16,792 bases of DNA from IMG/VR virus record IMGVR_UViG_2859810971_000005. One strand, 5' to 3'. Position numbers and translations under genes: made by a program. A model generated the notes under the pieces. That model was not told where the DNA came from, did not search any database, and saw only the letters and a program-made list of their open reading frames with translations. Each line of letters starts with the position of its first letter. Position 1 is the first letter of the stretch. Positions 12,551-13,630 of this stretch are shown here, one piece after another. This DNA comes from a virus. Lineage: Duplodnaviria; Heunggongvirae; Uroviricota; Caudoviricetes.

Positions 12551-12767
12551 TTATTCTCCGGTGTGCTGTTCTTTATATCTGTCGTGCAATAGATCTATTT
12601 CTTGCAGTTCCATTATTACAGGCTCAAGAAGCGTTATTAATGCCGTGGCAATTCTTGATTTTTGTTTGTCGCGTTCATTGTCGCCAAGTGTTTCAAGCCA
12701 TATGCGCAATATTTCCAGCATGTTTTCACTGTGAGAAAGTGCAAGAAATGCGCGGTCTATTGTTTCG
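12551..12767 (-). pseudogene. early-operon small gene interrupted by IS1 (3' portion; 5' end at 13536-13561)
   Basis: Removing IS1 and one copy of the target duplication restores a 76-aa ORF (MRDIYHETIDRAFLALSHSENMLEILRIW...) with ATG at 13559-13561 and a GGACGGGG ribosome-binding site. In the present sequence the first 6 codons and promoter are 768 bp away. Confidence 0.6.
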
Positions 12768-12782
12768 GGTAATGACTCCAAC

Positions 12783-13286
12783 TTACTGATAGTGTTTTAT
12801 GTTCAGATAATGCCCGATGACCTTGTCATGCAGCTCCACCGATTTTGAGAACGACAGTGACTTCCGTACCAGCCTTGCCAGATGTTGTCTCAGATTCAGA
12901 TTATGTCGCTCAATGCGCTGAGTGTAACGCTTGCTGATAACGTGCAGCTTTCCCTTCAGGCGTGATTCATACAGCGGCCAGCCATCCGTCATCCATACCA
13001 CGACCTCAAAGGCCGACAGCAGGCTCAGAAGACGCTCCAGTGTGGCCAGAGTGCGTTCACCGAAGACGTGCGCCACAACCGTCCTCCGTATCCTGTCATA
13101 CGCGTAAAACAGCCAGCGCTGACGTGATTTAGCACCGACGTAGCCCCAATGTTCGTCCATTTCAGCGCAGACAATCACATCACTGCCCGGTTGTATGCGC
13201 GAGGTTACCGACTGCGGCCTGAGTTTTTTAAGTGACGTAAAACTGTGTTGAGGCCAACGCCCATAATGCGTGCACTGGCACGACAT
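12783..13286 (-). CDS. insB: IS1 transposase InsB (expressed as InsAB' fusion by -1 frameshift)
   Basis: 167-aa frame matching remembered IS1 InsB (…[44 protein letters not shown]…). Confidence 0.9.
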
Positions 13287-13480
13287 CCGACGCCATTCAT
13301 GGCCATATCAATGATTTTCTGGTGCGTACCGGGCTGAGAGGCGGTGTAAGTGAACTGTAGTTGCCATGTTTTACGGCAATGAGAGCAGAGATAGCGCTGA
13401 TGTCCGGCAGTGCTTTTGCCGTTACGCACCACGCCTTCAGTAGCGGAGCAGGAAGGACATCTGATGGAAATGGAAGCCAC
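13205..13480 (-). CDS. insA: IS1 protein InsA
   Basis: 91-aa [42 protein letters not shown]... matches IS1 InsA. Confidence 0.95.
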
Positions 13481-13630
13481 GCAAGCACCTTAAAATCACC
13501 ATCATACACTAAATCAGTAAGTTGGCAGCATTACCATTGTTTCGTGGTAAATATCACGCATATTAATCCCCGTCCGTCGTTTTTCTTAAAATAACCTCTG
13601 TCACGAAATCAGCATAATCGGCGGCGATAT

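Follow-up and report, generated by a model that had tools for sequence, protein, structure and literature searches.

The DNA analyzed here, a stretch of 16,792 nucleotides (hereafter the window), is by its gene content a capsid-forming phage-inducible chromosomal island (cf-PICI) of Shigella flexneri. Into this island, which would by then have been defective, an IS1 element has recently inserted by simple transposition, interrupting a small conserved gene and probably exerting a polar effect on the replication genes behind it; we assign this account as a whole a probability of about 0.85. At the level of sequence, comparison of alleles with and without the element shows the insertion, its precision, its restriction to one lineage and its order relative to a mutation in the capsid gene.

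The island and the IS1 element within it

The island measures ~15.3 kb and lies between roxA and phoQ (phoQ occupying positions 1–1461 of the window). Its minus-strand genes run in the order int, alpA, a variable stretch, an Icd-like gene, a phrog_2512 gene, a 77-aa gene with the IS1 element, a DUF4222 gene, a primase–helicase gene and a set of iterons, followed by small ORFs and then by the genes for HK97 capsid, prohead protease, portal, head closure, connector, HNH, TerS and TerL. The SatelliteFinder set for cf-PICIs consists of integrase, AlpA regulator, primase-replicase, capsid, prohead protease, portal, head–tail connector, head–tail adaptor/closure, HNH, TerS and TerL; Pfam detects 11/11 of these core components, with the capsid and TerL genes present but not intact. 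Among the ORFs scanned from phoQ to int (where small uncharacterized ORFs remain) we found no tail, holin or lysis families, and the 11-component set in the absence of tail or lysis genes is the definition of a cf-PICI (PMC10085698).

The early end of the island encodes a 409-aa tyrosine integrase recognized by Pfam (15563–16792, minus strand) and the 62-aa AlpA (15000–15188, minus strand; PF05930, 5e-18), the activator typical of Gram-negative PICIs. In islands of that kind, AlpA switches on the genes downstream of it, and replication requires pri-rep (PMC6092414). Behind the IS1 element lie the 99-aa DUF4222 gene (12246–12545, minus strand; PF13973, 2.2e-24) and the gene for a 582-aa primase–helicase (Pri-Rep; 10501–12249, minus strand), the latter with D5_N, DUF5906 and Pox_D5 domains and, in an NCBIfam search, a match to TIGR01613, the P4-family primase C-terminal domain. 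Directly downstream of the primase–helicase gene comes an intact array of TRTCTACC iterons (10256–10490; at least 12, some in each orientation), the putative origin from which the island probably replicates.

In assembly L004 (CP026810.1), to which the window is 100% identical over 16,292 bp, the island is bracketed by a 75-nt direct repeat whose two copies match imperfectly (76% identity) but share an identical core of 21 nt, CGGTGTAGTTAATGGTGTAGT. One copy of this putative att repeat lies at 1537–1611 of the window and the other outside it, upstream of int (L004:5362–5436), such that the putative attL/attR sites fall between phoQ and roxA and involve no tRNA gene. In an E. coli relative (L001), an island built in the same way is inserted in tqsA, and an island sits at the phoQ junction in ~50 complete E. 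coli genomes.

The inserted element is, as the earlier note on this DNA had it, a complete IS1 of 768 bp at 12768–13535; its ends, ORFs, Pfam domains and identity to plasmid copies all agree on this, and the inverted repeats, insA, insB′ and the frameshift site are each intact. IS1 lies on the minus strand, its own 5′–3′ direction being that of the island genes, and as read in the window it starts with GGTAATGACTCC and finishes with GGCAGCATTACC. The two 23-bp terminal inverted repeats, GGTAATGACTCCAACTTACTGAT and GGTAATGCTGCCAACTTACTGAT, are imperfect (20/23 positions identical); the left, insA-proximal repeat (IRL, GGTAATGCTGCCAACTTACTGAT) occupies 13513–13535 (minus strand), whereas the right repeat (IRR; 12768–12790, minus strand) is the end turned toward the 3′ fragment of the split gene. 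The GTG-initiated insA (91 aa; 13205–13480, minus strand) matches the Pfam families Zn_ribbon_InsA and HTH_Tnp_IS1, and the insB′ frame (12783–13286, minus strand) matches DDE_Tnp_IS1 (5.6e-73). These frames are joined by an A6C slip motif at 13229–13223 (minus strand), where a simulated −1 frameshift yields an uninterrupted 232-aa InsAB′ transposase, a product also called in locus L013.

The window copy is 99.7% identical over 768/768 bp to copies annotated “IS1 family transposase” on S. flexneri plasmids, and many IS1 copies on Klebsiella and E. coli plasmids show ~90–95% identity to it. A length of ~768 bp, ~23-bp imperfect repeats starting GGTRATG, the A6C frameshift, a 9-bp duplication and near-identity to annotated copies together mark the element as IS1, and its intact sequence gives it a functional-looking appearance.

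Insertion site, interrupted gene and lineage

Sequence inspection and a script both place the two copies of the target-site duplication, ATTGTTTCG, immediately beside the element (left copy 12759–12767, right copy 13536–13544). Identity between the flanks ends at exactly 9 bp on both sides of IS1, and two such 9-mers would match by chance with a probability of ~4^-9. (The 9-mer ATTGTTTCG occurs once more, by coincidence and with no bearing on the insertion, at 12144–12152 inside the primase–helicase gene.)

Alleles of the island were collected by exact-sequence look-up of the window’s primase–helicase, which revealed the same island in many assemblies. The IS1-bearing alleles are those of the window, L004, L005 (S. 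boydii 600080), L012/13 and L014, and the IS1-free alleles those of L002, L003, L006–L008 and L015. All six IS1-free assemblies hold the same island at the same site (roxA/phoQ) with 99.8–99.9% identity, minus exactly 777 bp. A multiple alignment of eight alleles identifies this 777-bp block (768 + 9) as the only large difference; the window, L004 and L005 have it, and L002, L003, L006, L007 and L008 do not. Exact-pattern counts find both IS1 junctions in the IS1-bearing loci, and find that the IS1-free alleles keep one copy of the 9-mer, the empty site reading GCGCGGTCTATTGTTTCGTGGTAAATATC. Among species-representative genomes, Shigella flexneri SFBU1023 is the sole exact match to the flanking 31-mer, and there the site is empty. 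Since the IS1-free alleles lack exactly 777 bp and have a single 9-mer, the sequence comparison proves that IS1 arrived by simple transposition. The identical 9-mers and the simple transposition that the earlier note deduced from them are hence both borne out, re-inspection finding the two copies in the window and one in the empty alleles; the IS1-free alleles that it proposed to seek in related strains exist in six assemblies.

Removal of IS1 and one 9-mer restores an ORF from the ATG at 13561–13559 (minus strand), which begins MRDIYHETIDRAF and ends HTGE. The start codon is thus the one predicted for the excised gene, but the product is 77 aa long and not 76, the latter figure being the length of the present IS1-fusion ORF (12551–12781). 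Nor does the insertion separate only codons 1–6 from the remainder, as had been supposed: owing to the duplication, the 5′ fragment (13536–13561, minus strand) keeps codons 1–8 plus 2 nt, from which it runs into IS1 and stops after 15 codons (MRDIYHETMVMLPTY and then the stop). The 3′ fragment (phrog_2196; 12551–12767, minus strand) is contained in the 76-aa fusion ORF, which starts at a TTG at 12781 in the IS1 end, 1 nt past the insB stop codon, and retains 71/77 residues (7–77).

That the interrupted gene is real follows from a full-length match of the 77-aa protein to phrog_2196 (E = 8e-42), from 528 homologous clusters (nearly all of 77 aa, and all named “hypothetical”) and from its annotation in the IS1-free E. 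coli relative L001. Domain and PHROG matches likewise uphold the contention that the insertion splits a real, conserved gene just upstream of the 99-aa gene and the primase–helicase gene. The phrog_2196 family is narrow (9 representative clusters at 50% identity in a deep search of 1.84 billion proteins), and an AlphaFold model predicts a two-helix hairpin with confidence (pLDDT 93.7). No match to the 77-aa protein emerged from Pfam, NCBIfam, PADLOC or a PDB sequence search, and Foldseek of the model against the PDB returned nothing below E = 0.56; the phage Rip1–TerS complex was considered as a structural relative and set aside, the Foldseek match being non-significant.

The product of the fusion ORF is on record as WP_039065965.1 (“MULTISPECIES: hypothetical protein [Shigella]”) on 7 contigs, all of them Shigella, versus at least 1000 contigs for the exact intact 77-aa protein. 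We suggest that this 76-aa “hypothetical protein” be regarded as an IS1-fusion artefact of the 77-aa gene. A search of 5426 complete E. coli genomes found the uninterrupted homologous site in 366 and the IS1 junction in 0. The IS1-bearing alleles share ~17 SNPs relative to the IS1-free alleles and their IS1 copies are identical, which points to a single insertion event in one small sublineage. Downstream of IS1 we observe no decay, since the primase–helicase protein is identical in IS1-bearing and IS1-free alleles and, within the 77-aa gene, the lineage-specific SNP is a synonymous change; this absence fits a recent insertion.

In S. flexneri, a chromosome has a median of 194 IS sites, 42–59% of them IS1 (PMC7373316); the same study of IS in Shigella masked phage regions for its phylogeny and is silent on the present site (Hawkey et al, 2020, PMC7373316). 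The insertion is an ordinary and expected kind of event: IS1 and cf-PICIs are both known, and the insertion itself is already in public records.

Expected effect on the replication module and its control

The IS1 element sits within a packed and co-oriented string of genes (Icd-like, phrog_2512, 77-aa, DUF4222 and primase–helicase) that would form an operon. The gap between the 77-aa gene and DUF4222 is 5 nt, and the DUF4222 stop and the primase–helicase gene overlap by 4 nt. A promoter scan from IS1 to the primase gene gave no convincing promoter, and a weak promoter-like site lies at 12640–12612, inside the 3′ gene fragment. The first strong hairpin with a T-run downstream is at 9438–9421 (minus strand), where the transcription unit interrupted by IS1 probably ends. 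From the gal and lac operons IS1 is classically known to be polar, whichever way it points, through Rho-dependent termination. Given the co-orientation of IS1, the tight gene packing and the lack of a convincing promoter before the primase gene within the region scanned, it is plausible that the insertion is polar on replication functions.

One IS1 transposition into codon 6–9 of the 77-aa gene created the 9-bp duplication and cut the product to a 15-aa peptide. Translation would then end at the junction and, with the insB′ frame mostly untranslated, leave a transcript with several hundred poorly translated nucleotides exposed to Rho; the ensuing transcriptional polarity would most likely lower expression of both DUF4222 and the primase–helicase. 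Residual primase expression could persist via the 12640–12612 site or via the IS1 promoter, which points downstream.

That promoter is central to a different reading, in which it reads out through the right end of the element, the fusion ORF is translated, and the 77-aa function and the primase are rewired to InsA control. Co-orientation of IS1 with the operon would permit this, the fusion ORF (MESLPETIDRAF...) holds 71/77 residues, and the promoter scan places a promoter-like site at 13528–13501, overlapping the IRL. IS1 ends are also able to form hybrid promoters, but at the IS1 right end and junction the scan detected none, and no Shine–Dalgarno sequence precedes the TTG of the fusion ORF. 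The IS1 promoter is moreover weak and autorepressed by InsA, the element has internal termination signals, and, as translation of insB′ depends on a rare frameshift, translational coupling would be minimal. We consider such rewiring very unlikely, and the claim that IS1-driven, InsA-regulated read-out together with the 71/77-residue fusion replaces AlpA/Arc-like control of the replication module likewise improbable; if it were true, the primase–helicase would be expressed independently of helper-phage induction.

Silencing could instead have been what selection favored, IS1 sparing the host the harmful runaway replication that the island would undergo once alpA is induced by a helper phage. 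AlpA-driven uncontrolled replication of a Gram-negative PICI does lower growth and viability (PMC6092414), and the insertion is directly upstream of the DUF4222 and primase–helicase genes. An adaptive domestication of this kind is nonetheless distinctly unlikely in view of the rarity of the IS1 allele (the 7 contigs against at least 1000 noted above), a primase protein that is unchanged and shows no follow-up decay, an insertion that is single and not recurrent, and the many IS1 insertions that Shigella accumulates, for the most part apparently through drift (PMC7373316). That an assembler misplaced IS1, or that an IS1-mediated deletion or inversion occurred instead of a simple insertion, has a negligible probability: although Shigella genomes contain many copies of IS1 and repeats often cause misassembly, three independent long assemblies have both junctions identical, a short-read assembly has one IS1 junction at a contig end, the 9-bp duplication is exact, and the flanks run in line with those of the IS1-free alleles, no base being gained or lost beyond the 777 bp. 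A simple insertion with a likely polar effect is hence the reading that we prefer.

Beyond the insertion, several features of the island may bear on its regulation. Promoter-like sites at 15344–15250, in the alpA upstream region, are candidates for the early promoter, which the earlier note invoked without specifying a site. A 59-aa Arc-like repressor ORF (14317–14496, plus strand; phrog_228, 2.1e-6), conserved in the E. coli relative, where it is a hypothetical protein of 57 aa, is divergent from the Icd-like gene, and the spacer at 14247–14339 holds nested inverted repeats; we regard this spacer as a candidate early promoter/operator under the Arc-like repressor. A 248-aa ORF at 14196–14942 (minus strand) was rejected as a full gene: it has no match in Pfam, PHROGs, NCBIfam or PADLOC, and is probably not real over its full length, since it overlaps the Arc-like ORF as well as another plus-strand ORF, of 109 aa. 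It occupies the cf-PICI “variable region downstream of alpA”, where the E. coli relative has a Rha-family gene. An Rfam scan yielded no match at gathering thresholds and nothing above noise at E ≤ 1, and no C4-type antisense RNA was found upstream of the Icd-like gene.

The motif TTGTTCCACGTTGTT (TTGTT with 10-bp phasing) occurs 8 times versus 0.58 expected, at 1580–1594, 9010–9034 and 15471–15515. The first of these sites is in the att-like repeat by phoQ, the second is just upstream of the capsid operon, and the third comprises five phased copies between the int stop and alpA; all are candidate sites for AlpA or for the arm domain of the integrase. An identical 23-nt hairpin with a T-run, CAGCCGGAGCAATCCGGCTTTTT, is present at both 9421–9438 and 9058–9075 (minus strand), and the pair flanks a small phrog_1957 ORF (9095–9397) between the replication and packaging modules, an arrangement that resembles a terminator-bracketed cassette.

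Upstream of the insertion, a C8 run at 13786–13793 (G8 on the coding strand) splits the phrog_2512 gene into ORFs of 87 and 66 aa. L005 (with IS1) and L006 (without IS1), which belong to different sublineages, both have C7 and a fused 121-aa phrog_2512 ORF, and in L001, the E. coli relative, the annotation likewise marks a frameshift here. The split might reflect slippage or phase variation, a programmed frameshift or a sequencing error. Together with the Arc-like repressor and its palindromes and the phased TTGTT motif, this homopolymer offers leads on cf-PICI regulation that are more promising than IS1.

Other lesions of the island and comparison with known systems

The HK97-type major capsid gene (7637–8842, minus strand) contains an in-frame TGA at 7967–7969, which replaces the TGG (Trp) of a 99%-identical E. 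coli homolog. This TGA is common to all eight alleles compared, with or without IS1, and must be older than the element because alleles of both kinds share it. The TGA alone should abolish capsid formation, though it might be read through at a low level, and it predicts that the island would fail to make small capsids of its own for joining to helper-phage tails; capsid mutants lose cf-PICI transfer (bioRxiv 10.1101/2025.02.11.637232). As the capsid nonsense mutation predates IS1, the insertion is not what disabled the island; the satellite was already defective, and the island is best labeled a defective cf-PICI.

The gene for the large terminase (TerL; 2553–4213, minus strand) has a 1-nt deletion in a C4 run near 3256, resulting in ORFs of 371 and 238 aa. 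Only the window and CP026810.1 have this deletion, every other allele encoding an intact 553-aa TerL, and it may be either a real frameshift or a homopolymer sequencing error. A further 1-nt deletion private to the same two sequences lies at 4559, in a G-run upstream of the TerS start; its only effect is to make the TerS ORF look longer (123 instead of 108 aa), and it probably either does no harm or is a sequencing error. With the capsid gene already lost before IS1 arrived and TerL also frameshifted in this strain, the biological consequence of the IS1 insertion is probably little. Its interest is twofold: islands that are ~99.9% identical with and without IS1 constitute a natural near-isogenic pair for the study of cf-PICI operon structure and polarity, and the locus is a well-documented case in which IS1 expansion in Shigella erodes even mobile satellites. 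Otherwise it matters little.

The island resembles the cf-PICI prototype EcCIEDL933 in its gene order (int, alpA, variable region, pri-rep, then capsid to TerL), its size of ~15 kb and its lack of tail and lysis genes; unlike the prototype, the window copy is defective (capsid nonsense mutation, early-region IS1 and split TerL) and sits between roxA and phoQ. The element itself conforms to the IS1 family of Enterobacteriaceae (Shigella-type) in length, repeats, insA/insB′, A6C motif, 232-aa InsAB′ and 9-bp duplication, and differs from it in nothing of substance, the window copy being a Shigella-resident variant. The insertion recalls the classical polar IS1 insertions of gal and lac in that IS1 has entered a promoter-proximal gene of a tightly packed operon, although polarity and operon boundaries are here inferred. 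It is also akin to IS-driven inactivation in Shigella genomes, where lineage-specific IS1 copies lie within coding sequence (PMC7373316), with the difference that those cases concern core metabolic genes and the target here is a gene of a mobile satellite.
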